A stretch of DNA of 64,000 nt from Candidatus Eiseniibacteriota bacterium (GTDB lineage: Bacteria; Orphanbacterota; Orphanbacteria; Orphanbacterales; Orphanbacteraceae), in contig VGIW01000003.1 in NCBI GenBank assembly GCA_016867715.1, forward strand, positions 5,251 through 69,250, read 5' to 3'. A program made the position numbers and the translations under genes. The notes below the pieces were generated by a model. The model did not search any database and was not told the origin of the DNA. It saw nothing but the letters and a program-made list of their open reading frames with translations. This document shows positions 412 to 8,576 of the stretch, piece after piece. Every line of letters begins with the position of its first letter. Position 1 is the first letter of the stretch.

Positions 412-1013
412 GCGCGCGCGAGATCGCGATCGAGGAGGCCTCTTCGGGCGAGGGCCTGGGTCTCGTGCTCGAGACGATTCGAGCGAAGGGGACTCTCGCG
501 TATCCCGCCGAGACGATGTACGGCATCGGGGGGGACGGCCTCGATCGGGAGGTCGCCGCTCGCATCGCCGCGGCGAAAGGGAGCCCGCCGGGGAAGCCGT
601 TTCTACTTCTTCTGGACGATGTCGACAGGTGGCGCCAGGTGGCGGCGTCGCTTCCGCCGAGCGCCGAAGAGGCGGCGAGAAAGCACTGGCCGGGCCCGCT
701 CACCCTTCTTCTTCCGGCGCGGGACGACTGCGCCGCCGCCTACGAGGGGAAGGTCGCAGTGCGCGTGCCGGACCTCGAGGTCGTCCGCGTGTGGGTGCGC
801 GAGGCGGGTCGCCCGCTCTTTTCCACGTCCGCGAACCGCGCGGGCCGCGCCCCCGTGCGTGGGCCGGAGGAGCTCCGCGCTCTCTTCGGCGAGCGTCTCG
901 ACCTCCTCGTCACCGGTCCCGTCTTCCCCTCGACCGGTCTCCCCTCCACGATCGTCGATGCCACCGCCGATCCTCCGCGCGTTCTGCGCCGCGGCGCCGC
1001 GCCGTTTCCGTAG
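408..1013 (+). CDS. tsaC: L-threonylcarbamoyladenylate synthase, Sua5/YrdC/YwlC family
   Basis: 201-aa ORF with YrdC-like motifs (TMYGIGGD, TSANRAG). The GTG start overlaps the purE stop (GTGA). Confidence 0.8.
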   Translation: MSAREIAIEEASSGEGLGLVLETIRAKGTLAYPAETMYGIGGDGLDREVAARIAAAKGSPPGKPFLLLLDDVDRWRQVAASLPPSAEEAARKHWPGPLTLLLPARDDCAAAYEGKVAVRVPDLEVVRVWVREAGRPLFSTSANRAGRAPVRGPEELRALFGERLDLLVTGPVFPSTGLPSTIVDATADPPRVLRRGAAPFP

Positions 1014-1368
1014 GGGGATGCGGGAGAGAAGTTCACGGCGTTGCAGGGAGGGGATACAAGCATACGAAAAGAACCGAGAGGGAGGTGTGGCAGTACCTCA
1101 TGAGGTTTCGGATCGTCAGCATTCCTCCATCACGAAGGCATCCTGTCGTTTCGCGTAGAAAGCTGTAATATGATGGGATTGATGAAGCGGTGCTTGAAGA
1201 GCCGGATCGTCGTGCGTGTTTGTGGAGAGCTGTGGGAGTTCTCAAGGTCGGAGCCTGAAGCGCCTATCGTCATCAGCAAGGGAAGACAGACGTCGCCTGC
1301 GGTTCGGGACCGGCGTCATGCTCGCTCCACCACCTACCGCCTGCGTGTCCAGCTGCAAGGAGGATGTC

Positions 1369-2769
1369 ATGGCCGGAGATGGAAGTTTTGACGAGGAAGT
1401 ATTCTTCAGCTACGCGAGCGAGGACCTGCACCACGTTCGCCAACTCGCACGAAGGCTCTGGGACGAGTACCGGATCTCGAGCTTCGTCGCTGACGACGCT
1501 CTGAAGGATCTCGCGAGAGGCGACAGATGGGAGCAGACCCTCCTCGAAAAGGTGACGAGGTGCCGGTTCTTCGCGCTCTATGCCTCCCGGTCGGTCATGG
1601 CTTCCGCGTGGGTCAATCGAGAGGTACAGCGGTTCTTTGAGGGAGCGTACTCACGGGACAACCGAAGGAAGATGTTTGTTCTCACGAGGACGGCGCAGCC
1701 GGGGGCGCATCTTCCGGCGATTCTGCGTGACTTTCTCTGGGACAAAGACGAGGATGAACTCGTCCGGGATATCGTTGCGGAACTTATAAGGTTCCTTAGT
1801 GCAGAAAAGACATCGGCTCGCGATGAGCGCGACAAGCTGGCTTCCCAGTTGGAGGCGGAGTGCGAATCAGCCGCCAAGAAAGTCCGGGAGGCGTTCGGGC
1901 ACTACGGGCAAACGAGATTCTGGAAGCCCTTTTCCCGTCACGGTCACCTGCACATCTTCACGTGCGGCCGTGATGTGCCCCCGGAGAAACACAGGGGTTC
2001 CGGAGGACGTACCAACATCGATCGCTGGGACTACCAGACGGTGCTTCAGATCACACACTTCTTCGCCGAGAACTTCCCAGGCACGAAGGTCACAATCGAG
2101 GATCCGGTGGCCAAGCTTGCTGCGGAGGACTTGACGGGAGCGAGATTGGGACACCGCGTCGCCGGCCTCATGCGGCAGCTGGAAGACAAAGACTGCGTGG
2201 TTATCGGTTCGCCGGATGTCAGCGATTTCGCCGAGATCGTCTTGGCTGAACTGCACGGGACGCAGTCGTTTGCCGAAGGCACGGACAAGTTGGGGAGGAG
2301 GGGGCGGGAAAAGCGAAGAGGTTTCGCCCTTATTAAAGCGGAGATGAAGGCACCGAGTTCGACCTACTGGCTCAAGACCGAAGATGAAGAGGTCGGCGTG
2401 AAGTGGATCGAAACCGACAAGCAGTTCAGCGTGATAGAAGAGGACGGTCTCGGCACGACCTATGGAGTCCTGGTCGTGTGCGACAATCCCTTTGTCCGGG
2501 CATCAAGGGAACACAAGGTGATCATCTTTTCGGGCTTTTCGGGTGTCGCAACGTATGGCATGTCTTGGTTGCTGACATCAATCGACGCCCTTAGTGAATT
2601 CTTCAAGATCGACCAACGATTCGGCTCGCTCGACACCGATTTCGAAGCCCTCGTTGAAGTGCAGTATGCTTACGAGCTTGAGGGGAGGGCCGCGGGTGAT
2701 CGTCGCAGGCTGATTGCGACGGAGCCGGTAAGGGTCGAAGCAATGGTGGAGATTCCGCGGCTCGTGTGA
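1369..2769 (+). CDS. TIR-domain protein with an unassigned ~320-aa C-terminal domain (466 aa from ATG 1369)
   Basis: ORF 1216..2769 carries AGGAGG 7 nt upstream of the internal ATG at 1369. The N-terminus reads EEVFFSYASEDLHHVRQLARRLWDEYRISSFVADD...GDRWEQTLLEKVTRCRFFALYASRSVMASAWVNREVQRF, a canonical bacterial TIR with the catalytic Glu in the SxWxxxE position. The C-terminal region (HGHLHIFTCGRD...VIIFSGFSGVATYGMSWLL...) has no motif I can assign. Local GC is lower than in the surrounding housekeeping genes. Confidence 0.8.
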   Translation: MAGDGSFDEEVFFSYASEDLHHVRQLARRLWDEYRISSFVADDALKDLARGDRWEQTLLEKVTRCRFFALYASRSVMASAWVNREVQRFFEGAYSRDNRRKMFVLTRTAQPGAHLPAILRDFLWDKDEDELVRDIVAELIRFLSAEKTSARDERDKLASQLEAECESAAKKVREAFGHYGQTRFWKPFSRHGHLHIFTCGRDVPPEKHRGSGGRTNIDRWDYQTVLQITHFFAENFPGTKVTIEDPVAKLAAEDLTGARLGHRVAGLMRQLEDKDCVVIGSPDVSDFAEIVLAELHGTQSFAEGTDKLGRRGREKRRGFALIKAEMKAPSSTYWLKTEDEEVGVKWIETDKQFSVIEEDGLGTTYGVLVVCDNPFVRASREHKVIIFSGFSGVATYGMSWLLTSIDALSEFFKIDQRFGSLDTDFEALVEVQYAYELEGRAAGDRRRLIATEPVRVEAMVEIPRLV

Positions 2770-3146
2770 TCTGACAAACGTGAAGGGTGGCGGGCGGGTG
2801 TTCGACCGAGAGGCAGCGGGGCCGCGAGAGCCGATGAGTCTCCGCGCTCTGGCCAGGGTGGTCCGAGAAGGCGATCTCGAGAACGGGCTTGGCGTTAGCG
2901 TCCGGATCATTCGGTGATGTATTAAGCATTCTTCCTTTTTGTGGCGCGGACATGCAGTCTATGACCGCGTCGCATCGATGCCTTCGCGTCGGGAAGGAGG
3001 TCATTGCATCACCGCGGCATACCGCGCCTTGGTGGCTCAGATGGCGAGGGGAGGGTGAGCGTGCGTCTCGTCGGACGCGGCAGCTGCGCACGAGCTGTCG
3101 GCGAGCCGCGGTCTTTCGGTCTCCGAGAAGATGCTAGGATGAAACC

Positions 3147-3335
3147 ATGATCGGTAAGGTCGTCCAAAGGCACGTGCTGGGTGATCCTGCCGCCGCGCGG
3201 CGAGATCTGGTGTATTGGGTGGGGCGATCGCCCGCGGAGCGCCTGGCGGCCGTCGAGATGCTCAGGCGATGGGTCCGTGGATGTTCAGCCAGACTTCAGA
3301 GAACTGATCGAGTTGTTCAACAGACACTGGATTGA
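3147..3335 (+). CDS. Small ORF (62 aa), possible remnant or partner of the downstream nucleotidyltransferase-like pseudogene
   Basis: ORF track only. The ...RDLVYWVGRSPAERLAAVEMLRR segment looks protein-like but I cannot place it in a family. It overlaps the start of the pseudogene fragments. Confidence 0.2.
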   Translation: MIGKVVQRHVLGDPAAARRDLVYWVGRSPAERLAAVEMLRRWVRGCSARLQRTDRVVQQTLD

Positions 3336-3500
3336 GTATTTGGTTGTGGGCCGGGTCCAGGGTTTGTGGAAGCTATGGCGAACGTCCCTGTGCACTTCAT
3401 TGGGCGGGATATGTTGATCGCGAACAAGCGCGCGGTCGGCAGGAGGAATGACCATGCAGACATCGAGGCTCTTGGCGAGGAGTGGCGCGTCAGCGCGGAC
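3270..3500 (+). pseudogene. Remnant of a small nucleotidyltransferase-like protein (family with ...ELIELLNKH.VEYLIVGG... and ...VPV.FIG..DLI.NK.A.GR..D..D.E.L): frameshift plus internal deletion
   Basis: The N-terminal fragment DFRELIELFNRHWIEYLVVG sits in the frame of ORF 3181..3417. The C-terminal fragment VPVHFIGRDMLIANKRAVGRRNDHADIEAL sits in the frame of ORF 3366..3614. About 70 codons of the middle are missing and the two pieces are in different frames. Confidence 0.6.
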
Positions 3501-3607
3501 CTCGCTGCGGCAGTCGAGCGCGCCCCTGGAACCTCTCTTCGGGAACACGTTGGTAGTGTTTCTTGCGCGATGCGGCTGCTGAGCGGCAGCAGCAAGTGGA
3601 GTGAGAG

Positions 3608-4081
3608 ATGTTGAGCGCAACCATCAAGCTTTTTCTCGTACACGGTGACGCAAAGCGCATGCGCGCTGCTGAGCTCGTGAACTGGATCGGCAAAGCGGTG
3701 GCCGGGCCGCGGAGCGAGTTAGCCTGGACTATGCACGCGTTTCCTACTGCGGCCGCGGATCTCCCTTCGCGCTTCCGCGCTCCGGGAGCTTCCTCGGCGA
3801 CCGGTCCCTCCGGGACGGGTGCCCGCCTCGGTCGCGCGAGAAGACGCCTACGAGGCCTCCCTTCCGTCGCCGCTTCCTCAACGTAGTGCCGAGACTACGT
3901 TTCCGGGAGCGGCTCGTCCAGGTCGGCCTCTCGGGCCCTAGCTCCGCATCCTCGCGACGAAAACGCGTGCATAGTCGAGGCTAGCGCTGCCGCGACCGTG
4001 ATTCACGGCGGCTCTGCCAATGGACTCGTTGCTTGGAAAACGAAAGACGGGAAGACCCTGAAGGAACTCGAGGCGGGATAA
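3608..4081 (+). pseudogene. Small ORF (about 69 aa when reconstituted) interrupted by a 264-bp inverted-repeat element
   Basis: The upstream part of ORF 3608 (MLSATIKLFLVHGDAKRMRAAELVNWIGKAVAGPRSE) and the downstream piece (AAATVIHGGSANGLVAWKTKDGKTLKELEAG*, stop 4079-4081) are in the same frame (3608 and 3977 are both 2 mod 3). Removing 3720-3983 joins them in frame. The family of the reconstituted protein is unknown. Confidence 0.35.
3720..3983. mobile_element. MITE-like element of 264 bp with 23-bp terminal inverted repeats
   Basis: The left repeat TAGCCTGGACTATGCACGCGTTT (3720-3742) matches the reverse complement of the right repeat AAACGCGTGCATAGTCGAGGCTA (3961-3983) at 22 of 23 positions. 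The element length is a multiple of 3. No clear target-site duplication. A structured RNA with a 23-bp closing stem is an alternative reading. Confidence 0.45.
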
Positions 4082-4179
4082 CTAATGGACGAGTGGCCAG
4101 GGCTGCGCGCCGCTTCTGAAGCAGAGCAGTGGGCCCGCCACCTCGCGGTGGCACCACGGGCAGCCGTTGGAGGCGAACC

Positions 4180-4647
4180 GTGAACCCGAAGTTTGCGAGA
4201 ACCGTGGAATGCTTGGAACTGAGCTTTCAGAAACTCATGCAGCAGACACCGGTTCGTCCGGACACACTGCCTTCCGCCTTGCCGAGGCGGGGGATGTACT
4301 TGTTTTCCGACGGCGGGAGTGATCTGTACGTTGGGCGCACGAACAACTTGAAGGGTCGCATTCAGAGCCAGTGCCGCAGAAGCAGTAGTCACAATCAGGC
4401 CACCTTGGCCTTCCGAATCGCTCGGAAAGAAACGGGACGCACTCAGGCCTCATACACGACTTCTGGGTCTCGAGACGATCTCGAGAGTGACCCCGGGTTT
4501 GGCCCTGTCTTCAGTAGGGCGAAAGACCGAATCAGGAAGATGGACTTGCGATTCGTAGAGGAAGAGGGCCCCACCCGGCAGGCTCTTCTCGAGATCTGTG
4601 TGGCGACGGTTTTGGAGACACCCTACAACGATTTCGAAAACCACTGA
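4180..4647 (+). CDS. Stand-alone GIY-YIG nuclease domain protein (UvrC-N-terminal-like), about 155 aa from GTG 4180
   Basis: Motifs GMYLFS(GIY)...DLYVGRTNNLKGRIQSQ (YIG-R-N)...ATLAFRIARKE...TRQALLEICVATVLETPYNDFE (E...PxYN). GGAGG lies at 4169-4173, 6 nt before the in-frame GTG at 4180. The ORF-track start at 4129 is probably a 5' over-extension. Confidence 0.75.
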   Translation: MNPKFARTVECLELSFQKLMQQTPVRPDTLPSALPRRGMYLFSDGGSDLYVGRTNNLKGRIQSQCRRSSSHNQATLAFRIARKETGRTQASYTTSGSRDDLESDPGFGPVFSRAKDRIRKMDLRFVEEEGPTRQALLEICVATVLETPYNDFENH

Positions 4648-4885
4648 GGGGGCAAATGCTGCCCAACAAGCCGCATCCGGACTCCTCCGGCAAGCGAAAA
4701 GTCTATCCGTCAGGGCGCCGGGGTTGCACTACGGCCGTAACTCAGACCCCTTGGAGCATACTCTCCGTACCGGGAGCCGCGACCGGTGAGGAGCTACGAA
4801 TCGATCACTATCTGACCGCCCGGCACCGAGCCCCGGCGCGTAATCTCGACAGAGGTCCCCGGGTCGAGCGAGCCCCGTCCCTTCC

Positions 4886-4914
4886 TTGACGAACCCCTCT
4901 CCATCCGATAGGCT
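4886..4914 (+). promoter_or_regulatory. Candidate sigma-70 promoter TTGACG-N17-TAGGCT immediately upstream of the LMW-PTP gene, probably giving a leaderless mRNA
   Basis: TTGACG at 4886-4891 and TAGGCT at 4909-4914 with a 17-nt spacer. The -10 ends 8 nt before the GTG at 4923. Confidence 0.4.
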
Positions 4915-4922
4915 CGGCGATC

Positions 4923-5456
4923 GTGGGTGAGACCGGCGAGAAGAGGCGCGTCCTTTTTGTTTGCACCGGCAACATGTGCCGGAGCCCTCTGGCGGAGGGG
5001 ATCTTTCGGGGCCTTCTCCCCCCGGAGCAGGCCGGCCGCATTGAGGTTCTCTCCGCGGGGACGAACACGATCGACGGGGAGAGGCCGACCGACCTCGCGG
5101 AGGAGGTCGCGTCGGAGAACGGGATCGACATCGGCGGCATCCGCTCGCGCCGGTTGACGACCGCGCTCGTCCGCGCGAGCGATCTCATCGTGGTCATGAC
5201 GCGCGCTCATCGCGCGAGCGTTCTCTCCCTCGCGCCCGAGGCGGACACGAAGATCCTTCTCCTTCGGGATCTCCTTCCCCCTTCGAATCCCCGCGCGGGG
5301 AAGGACCTCCCCGATCCGATCGGCGGCCCGATGGAGGCGTACCGAGAGACGGTTCGCGGCATCCGCGAGGCGCTCGCGAAGGGGTGGCTGGCGATTGAGC
5401 GGCGTCTCTTTGGGAAGGAAACGGCCGAACGGGATTCGACGTCGGCGGGGACTTGA
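4923..5456 (+). CDS. Low-molecular-weight protein tyrosine/arginine phosphatase (YwlE-like)
   Basis: VLFVCTGNMCRSPLAEGIF is the C(X)5R P-loop signature. It also carries the DPIGG/DPY-type Asp loop. 177 aa. Confidence 0.85.
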   Translation: MGETGEKRRVLFVCTGNMCRSPLAEGIFRGLLPPEQAGRIEVLSAGTNTIDGERPTDLAEEVASENGIDIGGIRSRRLTTALVRASDLIVVMTRAHRASVLSLAPEADTKILLLRDLLPPSNPRAGKDLPDPIGGPMEAYRETVRGIREALAKGWLAIERRLFGKETAERDSTSAGT

Positions 5457-5504
5457 AGAGGGTCGTCTCGGGGATCGGCCGAGGCGGCGAGAAGGAACGG
5501 AACG

Positions 5505-5523
5505 GTCGGCTCGCCGAGCCGAC
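5505..5523. repeat. Perfect 19-bp palindrome GTCGGCTCGCCGAGCCGAC in the intergenic region before rpiB-glyA
   Basis: Read directly. It ends 14 nt upstream of the ATG at 5538. Confidence 0.5.
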
Positions 5524-5537
5524 GGCTGGGTGACGGG

Positions 5538-7250
5538 ATGAAGATCGCGGTTGCGAGTGATCACGCCGGATTCGAGCGAAAGAAGAAAATCATTTCGTGG
5601 CTCAAGGAACTCGGACAGGACCCGGCCGATCTCGGCCCTCCGAACGCGGAGCCGTGCGACTATCCGAAGTACGCCTACGCCGTCGCGCGGAGCATCCGCG
5701 AGGGATCGGCGGAACGGGGCGTCCTCGTCTGCGGAAGCGGGATCGGCATGTCGATGGCGGCGAACCGCCTGACGGGGGTGCGCGCCGCGCTCTGCTCGGA
5801 CCGGGAGGCGGCGCGTCTTTCGCGCGCGCACAACGACGCGAACGTCCTCGTCCTCTCCGGGCGCGCGATGGACGACGGCGAGGCGCGCGCCGCGCTTGAG
5901 ACGTGGATCGCCGAGCCGTTCGAGGGGGGACGCCACGAGGCGCGCGTGCGCGGGATCGATCTCCCCTCCTACGGGGGAACCGAGGAGCCGGCCCCGCCGG
6001 GGGGCGGACGGCTTTCGTATCTTTTCCAGACCGATCCCGAGATCGCGGAGGCGATCCTCGGCGAGAGGCGTCGGCAGGAGACGAAGCTCGAGCTGATCGC
6101 GTCGGAGAACTTCGCGAGCGAGGCGGTTCTCGAGGCGCTCGCGACCCCGATGAACAACAAGTACGCCGAAGGGTACCCGGGGAAGCGTTACTACGGCGGC
6201 TGCGAGTTCGTGGACGTCGCCGAGCAGCTCGCGATCGACCGCTTGAAAATGATCTTCGGCGCGGATCACGCGAACGTGCAGCCCCATTCGGGCGCGTCGG
6301 CGAACATCGCCGCCTACTTCTCGCTCCTCGAGCACGGCGACACGATCCTCGGCATGAACCTCTCGCACGGTGGGCACCTCACGCACGGCCATCCGGTGAA
6401 CTTCTCCGGGCGCTTCTTCAAGGTTGCCCAGTACGGCGTGAGCCGGGAGACCGAGACGCTCGACTACGACGAGATCCGCAAGGTCGCGCGGGAAGCGAAG
6501 CCGCGCATGATCGTGAGCGGGTACTCCGCCTACCCGCGCACGATCGACTTCGCCGCCTTTCGATCGATCGCGGACGAGGTCGGTGCGTACCTCATGGTCG
6601 ACATCGCGCACATCGCCGGCCTCATTGCGGCGGGTCTCCATCCGAACCCGGTCCCGCACGCGGACATCGTAACGAGCACGACCCACAAGACCCTCCGGGG
6701 CCCGCGCGGCGGCTTCATCCTGTGCAAGAAGGAGCATCAGGAGGCGGTCGACAAGACGACCTTCCCGGGCATGCAAGGGGGGCCGCTCGAGCACTGCATC
6801 GCCGCCAAGGCGGTTTGCTTCCGCGAGGCGATGACGCCCGCCTTCCGCGAGTACCAGGGGCGGGTCGTCCGGAACGCCCGCGCGCTCGCCGCGGCGCTCG
6901 AGGCGAAGGGCTTCCGCCTCGTCTCGGGGGGGACGGACAATCACCTCATGCTCGTGAATTTGACCGACAAAGGATTGTCGGGGAAGAAGTCGGAGAAGGC
7001 GCTCGACCAGGCGGGGATCACGGTGAACAAGAACACGGTTCCCTTCGACGAGCGGTCGCCCTTCGTCACGAGCGGGATCAGGATCGGGACTCCGGCGGTG
7101 ACGACTCGCGGGATGGGGACGCGGGAGATGGAGCGCGTGGCGGAGCTCATCGGGCGCGTCCTCGCCGACCCGGCGAACGAGGGGAACCTCGAGGAAGTGC
7201 GGAAGGACGTCGAGGCTCTCTGCCGTCTGTTCCCGCTCTACCGCGGCTAG
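5538..7250 (+). CDS. glyA: In-frame fusion of ribose-5-phosphate isomerase B (aa 1-145) and serine hydroxymethyltransferase (aa ~160-570)
   Basis: The N-terminal part [16 protein letters not shown]...[18 protein letters not shown]...[12 protein letters not shown] is a complete RpiB/LacAB. A Pro/Gly-rich linker [17 protein letters not shown] follows. Then a complete SHMT: [17 protein letters not shown]...[18 protein letters not shown]...[14 protein letters not shown]...[13 protein letters not shown]. There is a single ORF with no stop and no frameshift. Confidence 0.85.
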
Positions 7251-7271
7251 GCCGCGACAGGAGGGGCCGCC

Positions 7272-7721
7272 GTGCGCTGTCCTTCGTGCGGAAAGGATCG
7301 CGACAAGGTCGTTGATTCCCGGAGCGTGCGCGCCGGGAGGGCGGTGCGGCGGCGGCGGCATTGCACGGAGTGCGGGCATCGCTTCACGACGTACGAGTAC
7401 GTCGACACCGCGGTGTTCGTCGTCGTCAAGAAGGACGGGAGGCGCGAGCCGTACAACCGGGAGAAGCTCGTCAGCGGGATCCTCACCGCGTGCGAGAAGC
7501 GGCCGGTCTCCCGCGACGCGATCGACGCCCTCGTGGATCGGGTCGAGACGGCGATCGGGGAACAGGGAGAGCGCGAGGTCCGGAGCCAGACGATCGGCGA
7601 GGCGGTGATGAAGGAGCTCCGCAAGCTGGACGAGGTCGCGTACGTTCGTTTTGCCTCGGTGTATCGACGCTTCAAGGATGTGGGCGAGTTCCTGGACGAA
7701 GTCCGCTCGCTCCTTGACTGA
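7272..7721 (+). CDS. nrdR: Transcriptional repressor NrdR
   Basis: MRCPSCGKDRDKVVDSRSV... zinc ribbon plus ATP-cone domain, 149 aa. Confidence 0.9.
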   Translation: MRCPSCGKDRDKVVDSRSVRAGRAVRRRRHCTECGHRFTTYEYVDTAVFVVVKKDGRREPYNREKLVSGILTACEKRPVSRDAIDALVDRVETAIGEQGEREVRSQTIGEAVMKELRKLDEVAYVRFASVYRRFKDVGEFLDEVRSLLD

Positions 7722-7724
7722 TCG

Positions 7725-8576
7725 ATGTCCGCGAGGCGAAGACCGGCCGGCCGCTCCGATCGCAAGGAGATGCCCTTCCTCGAACACCTCGAGGAGCTCC
7801 GCGGGGTTCTCCTCCAATCCGCAGCCCTCGTCGCCCTCTTCGCGTGCGGCGGATGGTTCCTTTCGAGCGAGGGGCTCGACCTCCTCATCCGTCCGGTCGG
7901 ATCGCTCGTCTTTCTAGGCCCGACCGAGGCGTTCACCCTCCGCCTCAAGATCGCCCTTCTCCTCGGCTTCCTCGCCTCGCTCCCCTTCGTTCTCTACAAG
8001 GTGTGGAGCTTCGTGGCGCCCGGTCTCTTCGAGCGTGAGAGACGCTTCGTCGTTCTCGTCGTCGGAGCCTCGACGGTTCTCTTCCTCGCGGGGGCCGCCT
8101 TCGGCCTCTTTGTGCTCGTGCCGATCGCGGTCGCCTTCCTCCTCGGCTTCGGCACGGAGAGCCTCCGCCCGATGATCGCGGCGGGGAACTACTTCGCGTT
8201 CGTGACGAAGCTTCTTCTTGCGTTCGGGGTCGTCTTCCAGCTCCCGCTCGCGGTCACGCTCCTCACACACGTCGGCCTGCTCCAGCCGGAGTGGCTTCTC
8301 CGGAAGTGGCGCTACGCGATCGTCGTGATCGCGGTGGTGTCGGCGGTCCTCACGCCCCCCGACGTCGCCTCGCAGATCCTGATGGGTGTCCCAGTCCTCG
8401 CGCTCTACTTCCTCTCGATCCTCATCTCGTTCGCCGTCCGAAAGAAACGACGGGAAGAGAACGAACGCGATCGGGAGAGCGAGGAGGGCGAGGGAGGCGA
8501 GGAAACCGGCGGAGAGAACGGAGACGAAATCGAAGAAGAAACCGAACGGGTGAGGCGAACGGAGGATCCGGAGTGA
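7725..8576 (+). CDS. tatC: Sec-independent protein translocase TatC
   Basis: Six transmembrane segments, the FLEHLEELR N-terminal motif, and an acidic C-terminal tail. Confidence 0.85.
   Translation: MSARRRPAGRSDRKEMPFLEHLEELRGVLLQSAALVALFACGGWFLSSEGLDLLIRPVGSLVFLGPTEAFTLRLKIALLLGFLASLPFVLYKVWSFVAPGLFERERRFVVLVVGASTVLFLAGAAFGLFVLVPIAVAFLLGFGTESLRPMIAAGNYFAFVTKLLLAFGVVFQLPLAVTLLTHVGLLQPEWLLRKWRYAIVVIAVVSAVLTPPDVASQILMGVPVLALYFLSILISFAVRKKRREENERDRESEEGEGGEETGGENGDEIEEETERVRRTEDPE

Follow-up and report, generated by a model that had tools for sequence, protein, structure and literature searches.

A TIR Protein with an Undescribed C-Terminal Domain, a Candidate Single-Gene NADase Effector

Introduction

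TIR NADases play a central part in bacterial, plant and animal immunity, and the way in which they sense infection differs between TIR systems and is usually unexplained. Positions 1369-2769 (plus strand) of the 64,000-nucleotide stretch of DNA analyzed here, referred to below as the window, encode a TIR domain that is followed by a long helix and an uncharacterised C-terminal domain (C-domain). This arrangement raises the question of what the second half of the protein does and whether the gene works alone or with a partner.

The Gene and Its Surroundings

The coding sequence is complete, with 466 amino acids plus a stop; it starts with the ATG at 1369, and its stop codon ends at 2769. Direct reading of the sequence places a ribosome-binding site, AGGAGG (1359-1364, plus strand), 4-5 nt before the ATG. 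A mechanical list of open reading frames opened the gene at GTG 1216 instead. However, the N-termini of homologues line up with the ATG at 1369, and so the start chosen in the initial annotation is the correct one. The protein is 100% identical to P0001 (NCBI MBM3319263.1, from a metagenome-assembled genome of Candidatus Eisenbacteria) and is present on 17 contigs; its 101 homologues, mostly full length, have 30-87% identity. Thus, this is a genuine, intact gene. No signal peptide or membrane segment is visible in the protein by eye.

The gene lies in an insert of lower GC and GC3 (1014-4922, no strand assigned, boundaries approximate), which also contains gene remnants and a GIY-YIG-like ORF. 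The insert is flanked by the housekeeping genes for Sua5 (408-1013) and a low molecular weight (LMW) phosphatase (4923-5456). The TIR coding sequence has a GC of 0.58 and a GC3 of 0.70, versus 0.66 for the window and 0.83-0.90 for the flanking genes. The genes on either side are Sua5, LMW phosphatase, RpiB-SHMT, NrdR and TatC, and the remainder of the window is housekeeping-like; as first annotated, the gene has no ThsA, CD-NTase or cyclase partner next to it. There is no tRNA and there are no flanking direct repeats at the insert edges, no promoter or terminator consensus at the insert rises above chance, and no Rfam match at E<=1 occurs in 900-5000. A look-up of the empty site, in which metagenomes were scanned with the Sua5 protein, returned short contigs only.

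Related genes were found at 20 loci among 185,579 species genomes, and these are spread across more than 10 phyla. Their surroundings display no common pattern. When the ORFs of about 23 loci (called crudely, as the longest non-overlapping ORFs) were clustered and 132 neighbours were scanned against Pfam and PADLOC, no neighbour family was present in more than two to three of the loci. The recurrences were generic ABC and histidine-kinase genes alone, and so a conserved neighbour was rejected. Most neighbours are housekeeping or metabolic, and no CD-NTase or cyclase is adjacent at the homologue loci examined. Relatives with 75-85% identity are in four unrelated genomic contexts. In a KSB1 genome, the gene is alone between isocitrate lyase and malate synthase. 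The absence of a recurring neighbour together with these four contexts implies that the unit is the single gene.

Some copies do have more suggestive surroundings. A 53%-identical copy is in a prophage and adjoins a terminase, a 78%-identical copy (L036) is located between TIR-NUDIX, RelA/SpoT-LSDAT and TIR-STAND genes, and further copies are near NACHT, HEPN_Apea and patatin genes. The low GC and GC3, the scattered loci, the prophage copy and the conflict-gene neighbours are signs of mobility and of an association with conflict, and the gene was acquired horizontally. Phage carriage amounts to the one prophage case: no relative of the protein was present in the 2.9 million viral contigs of IMG/VR, and BFVD gave no fold match (best E 0.02).

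The TIR Domain and the Linker Helix

The TIR domain consists of residues 9-125 (1393-1743, plus strand), and several lines of evidence agree with the original assignment to the bacterial TIRs. Residues 11-119 are a hit to Pfam TIR_2 (PF13676), with E=1.1e-12 and a score of 48.9 bits, where the cutoff is 28. The AF2 model of the whole protein has a pLDDT of 88, which is about 90 over the TIR residues, and its secondary structure there is that of a TIR. Foldseek gives a probability of 1.0 to the TIRs of MyD88, SARM1, RUN1, AbTir, SPARTA and ThsB, and the flavodoxin-like TIR fold is superposable on MyD88, MAL, AbTir, SARM1 and RUN1 with target TM values of 0.6-0.74. A family profile matches AbTir with E=6e-10. 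The domain had been drawn to about residue 150; it ends near residue 125.

The putative catalytic residue is Glu85 (codon GAG, 1621-1623, plus strand) in the motif S79-x-W81-V-x-x-E85. The Glu had been proposed from the unaligned sequence, and proper alignment bears this out: Glu85 is conserved in 58 of 58 homologous sequences, the S-x-W-V-x-x-E helix is invariant or nearly so, and in profile-to-PDB alignments Glu85 pairs with the Glu of AbTir 'WTNYE' and RUN1 'WCLDE', that is, with the WxxxE motif in the helix after betaC. In both AbTir and RUN1 this Glu is catalytic. On the basis of alignment and model, the TIR domain appears to be catalytically competent.

Residues 128-179 (1750-1905, plus strand) are predicted by AF2 to form one long alpha-helix. 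These 52 residues are the least conserved segment of the protein (22.6% mean pairwise identity), and a conserved YxxxRFW motif marks the C-terminal end. A coiled coil was considered and rejected. No convincing heptad pattern was found (the best a/d hydrophobic fraction is 0.53), and so coiled-coil oligomerisation is unsupported and we refer to the segment as a helical linker.

The C-Terminal Domain

The C-domain comprises residues 180-466 (1906-2766, plus strand), and AF2 models it as an alpha/beta domain with a pLDDT of 85 and a pTM of 0.87. It is about 290 amino acids in length rather than the roughly 320 first estimated. The description of this part as having no recognisable family has held up. 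The C-domain family has no match in Pfam, NCBIfam, PADLOC or PHROGs, where the PADLOC models gave weak matches to the TIR only, and its profile has 0 matches at E<=10 among PDB sequences. A full-text literature search found no description of the domain or the family, although one could have been overlooked. Known partners of TIR domains were checked as well, and there is no confident match to SAVED, SLOG, STING or NACHT. The SAVED, STING or cNMP-binding sensor domains of CBASS and Pycsar TIR effectors were not found in the protein; neither sequence nor fold matches the SLOG superfamily (ThsA SLOG, TPALS and LSDAT); and there is no Pfam match to, or Walker A motif of, the P-loop NTPases (NACHT/AAA_16) that occur in STAND/NLR-type TIR proteins, Avs and TIR-NLR. 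The fold search gave partial matches alone, to the BcsB flavodoxin-like domain and to the N-terminal domains of GH115, GH20 and GH84. These represent a resemblance in fold and not membership, as they cover less than half of the C-domain at 6-17% identity and have no motifs in common with it. Furthermore, those proteins are periplasmic or secreted and handle carbohydrates, whereas the TIR protein, as noted above, has no visible export signal. Judged from these searches, the C-domain would define a new family that matches none described.

The C-domain is also the best conserved part of the protein, with a mean pairwise identity of 47.3% versus 31% for the TIR domain, and 26 of the 29 invariant positions in the full-length alignment are located in it. 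Seventeen C-domain positions are conserved across both the TIR class and a second class of proteins (NDT class, see below) that have the same C-domain. Four motifs, all on the plus strand, are invariant or nearly so. HIFTCGRD (1951-1974) is at the end of beta1, and its C199 and R201 are invariant in the TIR class. GGRTNIDRWDY (2002-2034; GGRTNIDxWDY in the family) contains R214, W220 and D221, and GSPDVSDFAE (2206-2235; GSPDVSDxAE in the family), after beta3, contains S281, D283, V284 and E289; these residues are conserved in both classes. The glycine-rich SGFSGVAT (2530-2553) is at the N-terminus of a helix; G389, G392 and T395 are conserved in both classes, and the motif is a candidate phosphate- or anion-binding loop. 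The protein studied here, which is the first (reference) sequence in the two alignments (A1 and A2) with its homologues, has all four motifs and full-length profile coverage. The alignment and the AF2 model together place the polar and glycine residues conserved across classes in the loops that follow beta1, beta3 and beta4 in a Rossmann-like sheet, a pattern that would fit a small-molecule pocket.

The C-domain is not restricted to TIR proteins. The N-terminus is a TIR in 121 of the 240 family proteins examined, and in 77 it is a region of about 330 amino acids with a domain like DNPH1 and nucleoside 2-deoxyribosyltransferase (NDT), i.e., an N-glycosidase. Pfam PF05014 is above the cutoff in two proteins of this NDT class (P0199 and P0201), and the class profile matches Rcl/DNPH1 with E=3e-4, with the invariant Glu of 'YELG' aligned. 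In one family protein, pentapeptide repeats are combined with Mrr_cat, and another has a non-TIR N-terminus that is unassigned; each of these architectures is known from one cluster representative. The N-terminus of P0100 looks HTH-like by eye; Pfam does not confirm an HTH, and so we treat that N-terminus as unassigned. In these architectures, the C-domain is the constant module beneath swapped effector-type N-termini, which is how known effector-sensor immune proteins are laid out.

Proposed Function

The explanation that we favour, and only tentatively, is that the protein is a self-contained NADase effector that would be gated by a new ligand-sensing domain and would most likely act against phages. 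The initial annotation had offered either a single-protein factor with a novel sensor or signalling to a GIY-YIG gene downstream. The lone gene, its varied contexts and the swapped N-termini favour the former; the latter is discussed below and did not survive.

We infer NADase activity, ligand gating, oligomerisation and a defence phenotype, which might be connected as follows. The N-terminal TIR would be the effector, an NAD+ glycohydrolase using Glu85, and the C-domain would be a regulatory or sensor module that is coupled to it by the long helix. In the resting state, the TIRs would be kept apart. A small, probably phosphate-bearing ligand would bind to the C-domain, presumably in a pocket that the loops following beta1, beta3 and beta4 would form (R214, D221, S281, D283, E289, N373 and G389-x-x-G392-x-x-T395), and shift the oligomeric state. 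The TIRs would then pack into composite active sites, NAD+ would be depleted, and the cell and the phage replicating in it would be arrested. No partner gene would be necessary.

A more specific and more speculative version is that the C-domain might be an immune sensor module that has so far gone unrecognised, one that has a specific small molecule as its ligand and switches interchangeable killing domains on. It is possible, but doubtful at present, that the ligand is a metabolite with which the host signals alarm, a nucleotide made by the phage or a messenger produced in trans. Likewise, the killing domains could conceivably be the TIR, the DNPH1-like N-glycosidase and the Mrr nuclease. The higher conservation of the C-domain relative to the effector suggests a conserved small ligand rather than a sensor of a fast-evolving phage protein.

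Alternative Explanations

The alternative that survives best, although we consider it unlikely, is that the C-domain is itself an enzyme, e.g., a phosphoesterase or transferase with a nucleotide, or the product of the TIR or NDT domain, as its substrate. The protein would then be a bifunctional enzyme that processes nucleotides or NAD, whether as a toxin, as a maker and processor of signals or in metabolism, and not an effector with a sensor. The invariant positions described above, concentrated as they are in the C-domain, would also fit an active site. However, neither sequence nor fold places the domain in a catalytic family, just the 17 positions are conserved across classes, and the NDT class lacks C199, R201, D218 and K249, all of which are invariant in the TIR class. 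The presence of an Mrr nuclease and of a non-glycosidase N-terminus on the same C-domain is also harder to square with coupled nucleotide chemistry.

It is less probable still that the TIR is a Thoeris-like signal generator, one that senses infection via the C-domain and makes a cADPR-type or ADPR-derived messenger for an effector encoded elsewhere. ThsB-type TIRs do make signals, the Glu is conserved, one of the PADLOC matches is to ThsB1 (weak, E=0.013), and the TIR, NUDIX and SLOG-family (LSDAT) genes around the L036 relative could use such molecules. Defence systems almost always travel as operons, yet an effector-type gene is conserved beside none of the approximately 23 loci. Moreover, the nuclease and DNPH1-like hydrolases that carry the same C-domain are killing-type effectors and not signal makers, and a systematic Thoeris survey puts stand-alone TIRs outside Thoeris (bioRxiv 10.64898/2025.12.03.692087).

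That the TIR is non-enzymatic, either a protein-protein adaptor or scaffold or a regulator of physiology unrelated to conflict, we regard as very improbable. Many of the neighbourhoods are housekeeping, as would suit such a role, and some TIRs are adaptors. However, a patchy, mobile distribution is atypical for housekeeping regulators, and Glu85 and its helix are invariant or nearly so. In addition, the DNPH1-like hydrolase that replaces the TIR keeps its own catalytic Glu, which argues that catalysis is the selected trait.

Finally, a two-gene system with the GIY-YIG-like ORF (4129-4647) as the nuclease effector, suggested by its weak Pfam match (GIY-YIG, E=0.0039, 17.9 bits, below the 22.6 gathering threshold) and its position in the same low-GC/GC3 insert, is effectively refuted by the comparative data, because the ORF has no homologue at any other locus with the TIR gene, including those of the 85%-, 78%- and 75%-identical relatives, and is 1.36 kb downstream. 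Two stretches of degraded gene remnants intervene, among them a DUF4357 gene that is truncated and contains an in-frame stop.

Why the Family Matters

The family offers a TIR protein that is compact and partner-free. The half that would sense or regulate corresponds to no described domain, and this half is reused with at least one further type of hydrolytic effector (DNPH1/NDT-like) and, once, with an Mrr nuclease. Since stand-alone TIRs were left out of the latest systematic TIR survey, the class is unexplored. If the immune-sensor reading is true, this would be a new, widely scattered one-protein defence family, possibly with a new immune signalling ligand. Finding out what binds to or triggers the C-domain could bring to light a new cue of infection or a new messenger, and it could yield a small ligand-gated NADase as a tool. 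If the C-domain is an enzyme instead, it would be a new catalytic family coupled to nucleotide N-glycosidases.

Comparison with Known Systems

AbTir and the bacterial coiled-coil TIR NADases provide the best match to the TIR at the sequence level, with the Glu aligned. However, AbTir has its coiled coil at the N-terminus and its TIR at the C-terminus, and it has no equivalent of the 290-amino-acid C-domain. The resemblance to SPARTA (TIR-APAZ plus a short pAgo) is a Foldseek match of about 145 columns that covers the TIR only, and no pAgo gene is present among the neighbours of the TIR-gene loci.

In Thoeris ThsB, too, a bacterial TIR_2-type domain carries a conserved Glu, and it is ThsB that the weak PADLOC and Foldseek matches recall. 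Thoeris, however, has a ThsA-type or other effector gene in the operon, which is not found beside the TIR gene at the approximately 23 loci, and ThsB lacks the large conserved C-terminal domain of the 466-amino-acid protein. The survey cited above (2025) explicitly excluded stand-alone TIRs (bioRxiv 10.64898/2025.12.03.692087).

The DSR2/SIR2-type single-protein NADase defences are similar in layout, in that one gene encodes both the domain that consumes NAD+, at the N-terminus, and the sensing region, at the C-terminus, and its distribution is patchy and mobile. They differ in the effector, which is SIR2 rather than TIR, and in the C-domain; in the present family, the effector is the less conserved of the two parts. 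The DNPH1/Rcl and nucleoside 2-deoxyribosyltransferase-like effectors bear on effector swapping only: the sister class replaces the TIR with an N-glycosidase fold and keeps a catalytic Glu, and this domain is absent from the TIR protein itself.

The TIR-SAVED and TIR-STING proteins of CBASS also combine, in one polypeptide, an N-terminal TIR with a catalytic Glu and a C-terminal alpha/beta domain that does not look catalytic. The logic expected to be common to them and to the protein described here is that a ligand would trigger TIR assembly, which would in turn deplete NAD+. One TIR-SAVED protein that stands alone is reported to sense host c-di-AMP and thereby to provide defence in the absence of its cyclase (bioRxiv 10.1101/2025.06.19.660554), and so there is a precedent for a TIR-sensor protein that works without an adjacent cyclase.

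The TIR gene and its protein

The TIR gene runs on the forward strand from an ATG at 1369 to a stop that ends at 2769 and encodes 466 amino acids. A mechanical ORF list places the start further upstream, at a GTG at 1216. The sequence AGGAGG can be read ahead of the ATG (1359-1364, +) and the N-termini of 57 homologues align at 1369, so that with its open frame the gene proposed in the initial annotation is real. An identical protein, MBM3319263.1, is in NCBI from a Candidatus Eisenbacteria MAG, and its sole annotation is 'toll/interleukin-1 receptor domain-containing protein'. Seventeen metagenomic contigs also encode the protein, flanked as it is in the window.

Residues 11-119 match Pfam TIR_2 with E=1.1e-12 and score 48.9 bits, where the cutoff is 28. 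In an AlphaFold2 model of the full protein, built from a 58-sequence alignment (mean pLDDT 88), residues 9-125 form the beta-alpha TIR fold, and Foldseek against the PDB matched, with probability 1.0, the TIR domains of MyD88, MAL, SARM1, RUN1, AbTir, SPARTA TIR-APAZ, ThsB and PdTIR. The family profile matches the TIR domains of AbTir (E=6e-10) and RUN1 (6e-9), and these alignments pair the Glu of the family 'WVxxE' motif with those of AbTir 'WTNYE' and RUN1 'WCLDE', which are the catalytic residues according to the literature. The TIR part has only three invariant positions in the 58-sequence alignment, F12, Glu85 and F89. Thus, the catalytic Glu claimed from the sequence holds on proper alignment, and the protein belongs to the TIR_2 family and carries the Glu that characterises enzymatic TIRs.

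In the model, residues 128-179 form a single 52-residue helix, the least conserved segment of the protein (22.6% mean pairwise identity). A coiled coil was considered and dropped because no convincing heptad periodicity was found, and we refer to this segment as a helical linker.

The C-domain

The rest of the protein (residues 180-466, the C-domain) was modelled alone as an alpha/beta domain (pLDDT 85, pTM 0.87) with the topology beta1-alpha1-beta2-alpha2-beta3-alpha3, a beta-rich insertion (~319-372) and beta4-alpha4-alpha5-beta5-beta6. Neither the window protein nor any of the 20 members of the alignment that it leads had a match to the C-domain in Pfam-A, NCBIfam, PADLOC or PHROGs. The C-domain profile had zero matches at E<=10 to every PDB sequence, and a search of the BFVD viral structures gave nothing. 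SAVED, CARF, STING, SLOG/LOG, NACHT, SIR2, macro and APAZ were all absent from its structure matches, and for an LSDAT protein of the SLOG family encoded at a related locus, hhalign gave a probability of 0.3%. Since none of these searches mapped it confidently to a known TIR partner domain, the initial view that it has no recognisable family stands. We also found no description of this C-domain in the literature, which is no proof that none exists.

The C-domain is better conserved than the TIR domain (47.3% vs 31.5% mean pairwise identity), and 26 of the 29 invariant positions fall in it. The invariant positions cluster in four motifs: HIFTCGRD at the end of beta1, GGRTNIDxWDY, GSPDVSDxAE after beta3 and SGFSGVAT after beta4, at the N-terminus of a helix. 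Seventeen positions are conserved in both major classes of the family described below: W185, R214, W220, D221, P246, S281, D283, V284, E289, L292, N373, P374, G389, G392, A394, T395 and L402. The model would place them in the loops that follow the parallel strands at their C-terminal edge, which is where Rossmann-like folds bind ligands. We infer that these loop residues are a candidate ligand site; they look like a phosphate/ribose-type pocket.

One C-domain with several N-termini

A word-indexed search found 101 homologues of the window protein, mostly full length (30-87% identity), in Eisenbacteria, KSB1, Anaerolineae, Verrucomicrobiota, Polyangia, Actinomycetota and even one Hodarchaeota MAG. 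Exhaustive HMMER with the C-domain profile gave 334 clusters at E<=1e-3 among 1.84 billion cluster representatives, and 20 loci in >10 phyla came from a pattern scan in which each of 185,579 species was represented by one genome. The family is rare and environmental.

We sorted 240 family proteins by their N-termini. TIR is present in 121 and a non-TIR region of ~330 aa in 77, and another 40 are either fragmentary or short at the N-terminus. An 'NVxYELG' motif is invariant in the ~330-aa region. In two members this region passes the Pfam threshold for Nuc_deoxyrib_tr; as a profile it matches Rcl/DNPH1 structures (E=3e-4, catalytic Glu aligned), and it weakly matches the PADLOC CBASS 'Effector TIR' model. 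The other two architectures are known from one cluster representative each. One protein (P0120) has pentapeptide repeats and an Mrr_cat restriction-endonuclease domain before the same C-domain; the other (P0100) has a non-TIR N-terminus without Pfam assignment that is HTH-like by eye, for which Pfam gives no confirmation. P0120, a 588-aa protein from the representative search, has a hydrophobic N-terminal stretch resembling a membrane helix by eye, and its beta1 motif is partly degenerate (RILTSALC instead of HIFTCGRD).

The insert around the TIR gene

The TIR gene lies within a ~3.9 kb stretch between the Sua5/YrdC (408-1013) and low-molecular-weight phosphatase (4923-5456) genes. This stretch is lower in GC and GC3 than its surroundings: the TIR gene has a GC content of 0.58, versus 0.66 for the window and ~0.70 for the flanks, and its GC3 is 0.70 versus 0.83-0.90 for the flanks. 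Neither a tRNA nor flanking repeats were present around the stretch.

Outside the TIR gene the stretch is decayed. Three short ORFs overlap in two frames at 3147-3614 (+): 3147-3335, 3181-3417 and 3366-3614. Inspected by eye, the translated ORFs look like a small antitoxin-like protein and both ends of a nucleotidyltransferase-type protein ('...EYLVVG', 'VPVHFIGRDMLIANKRAVGRRNDHADIEAL'), which would fit a gene pair that has been frameshifted and has lost internal sequence; Pfam had no significant match to these ORFs. A DUF4357-type remnant follows in one frame (3608-4081, +), consisting of an N-terminal piece MLSATIKLFLVHGDAKRMRAAELVNWIGKAVAGPRSEL, an in-frame stop (3884-3886) and a C-terminal piece that ends in GGSANGLVAWKTKDGKTLKELEAG and a stop. 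The C-terminal piece matches Pfam DUF4357 at profile positions 28-54 only (E=2e-10, 40.7 bits; cutoff 38.4), and the central part seems to have been lost or replaced. Within the remnant is a 23-nt inverted repeat (3720-3742 and 3961-3983, 96% complementary, arms 218 nt apart) that might be the trace of a small inserted element or of a deletion; Rfam had no match over this region. The last ORF (4129-4647, +; 172 aa, or 155 aa by gene callers elsewhere) is GIY-YIG-like, scoring 17.9 bits against the Pfam threshold of 22.6 over the first half of the profile only. Its GC3 of 0.68 is low like that of the TIR gene.

The rest of the 64-kb window, where scanned, has housekeeping-like genes. A single 570-aa ORF at 5538-7250 (+) fuses ribose-5-phosphate isomerase B (LacAB_rpiB) to serine hydroxymethyltransferase (SHMT), and the fusion is called likewise on matching metagenomic contigs. 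A 1007-aa antisense ORF over the phosphatase and fusion genes (4794-7817, -) is almost certainly a high-GC artefact and not a gene.

The loci of relatives

The genes around the relatives differ from locus to locus. For example, an 85%-identical copy has rpoD on one side and carbonic anhydrase on the other, a 75%-identical copy lies between DUF1398 and recA, and in a KSB1 relative the gene stands alone, inserted between the isocitrate lyase and malate synthase genes. A 53%-identical copy from an Anaerolineales MAG (L004 / L014) is in a prophage or phage. On one side it has an Exo_endo_phos gene; directly downstream are the terminase genes, small and large, with those for portal, protease and capsid. 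Lar (restriction alleviation) and ParB-like genes are located upstream. A 78%-identical copy (L036 1-7487, contig SRR28520290_385363) lies between conflict-type genes. They encode a 286-aa TIR_2-NUDIX fusion, an 854-aa RelA_SpoT-LSDAT_prok-RyR protein and a 386-aa TIR-AAA_16/NPHP3_N STAND protein, and this locus is clearly a dense nucleotide-centred conflict island. Further copies are near NACHT, HEPN_Apea or patatin genes.

A 676-aa member with the DNPH1/NDT-like N-terminus, from a Chitinispirillaceae MAG (L032 1-7446), is flanked by two conflict-type genes, one encoding a TIR followed by a ~230-aa helical region, TPR-like by eye, and the other a second DNPH1/NDT-like protein whose C-terminus is unrelated. 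This is a cluster of three putative N-glycosidase-type conflict proteins.

Clustering the ORFs from ~23 loci, which are crude calls, and comparing 132 neighbours within 4 kb with Pfam and PADLOC gave no recurring neighbour beyond generic ABC and histidine-kinase genes. Therefore, the TIR gene moves, and presumably works, alone.

A possible mechanism

We tentatively favor, at a little under even odds, an NAD+-depleting TIR effector regulated by the C-domain; the NADase activity, ligand gating, oligomerisation and role in defence are all inferred. The TIR would be the effector and the C-domain the regulator because a constant, conserved C-domain is found under interchangeable hydrolytic N-termini (TIR, DNPH1-like and Mrr). 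Slower evolution of the C-domain than of the effector, and a putative pocket that looks to be of the phosphate/ribose type, would make a variable phage protein a less likely trigger than a small molecule or host component that is conserved.

The main rival, to which we give perhaps one chance in five, is that the conserved C-domain is an enzyme itself, coupled to the N-glycosidase. Still less probable is a Thoeris-like producer of a signal for an effector in trans, as an operon partner is absent at all loci examined. The initial annotation had also considered signalling to the downstream GIY-YIG gene, and this pairing is effectively refuted, since no GIY-YIG counterpart adjoins any TIR homologue and the Pfam score of the ORF is sub-threshold.

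Comparison with known systems

TIR fusions of unknown function are common. The conserved new C-domain and the effector swapping make this family a concrete candidate for a new sensing module, and the window protein would be a TIR effector of the single-protein kind whose partner domain is undescribed and reusable. The features that define Thoeris, CBASS/Pycsar effectors, SPARTA, STAND-TIRs and SLOG fusions are absent from it. The latest systematic survey of TIR systems in bacteria explicitly left out 'TIRs found in standalone proteins' (bioRxiv 10.64898/2025.12.03.692087). The constant C-domain with swapped hydrolytic N-termini is like the effector-sensor layout of TIR-SAVED, TIR-STING and Cap4. 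For such a protein without a partner there is a published precedent, a stand-alone TIR-SAVED, which defends by sensing host-made c-di-AMP without its cyclase (bioRxiv 10.1101/2025.06.19.660554).
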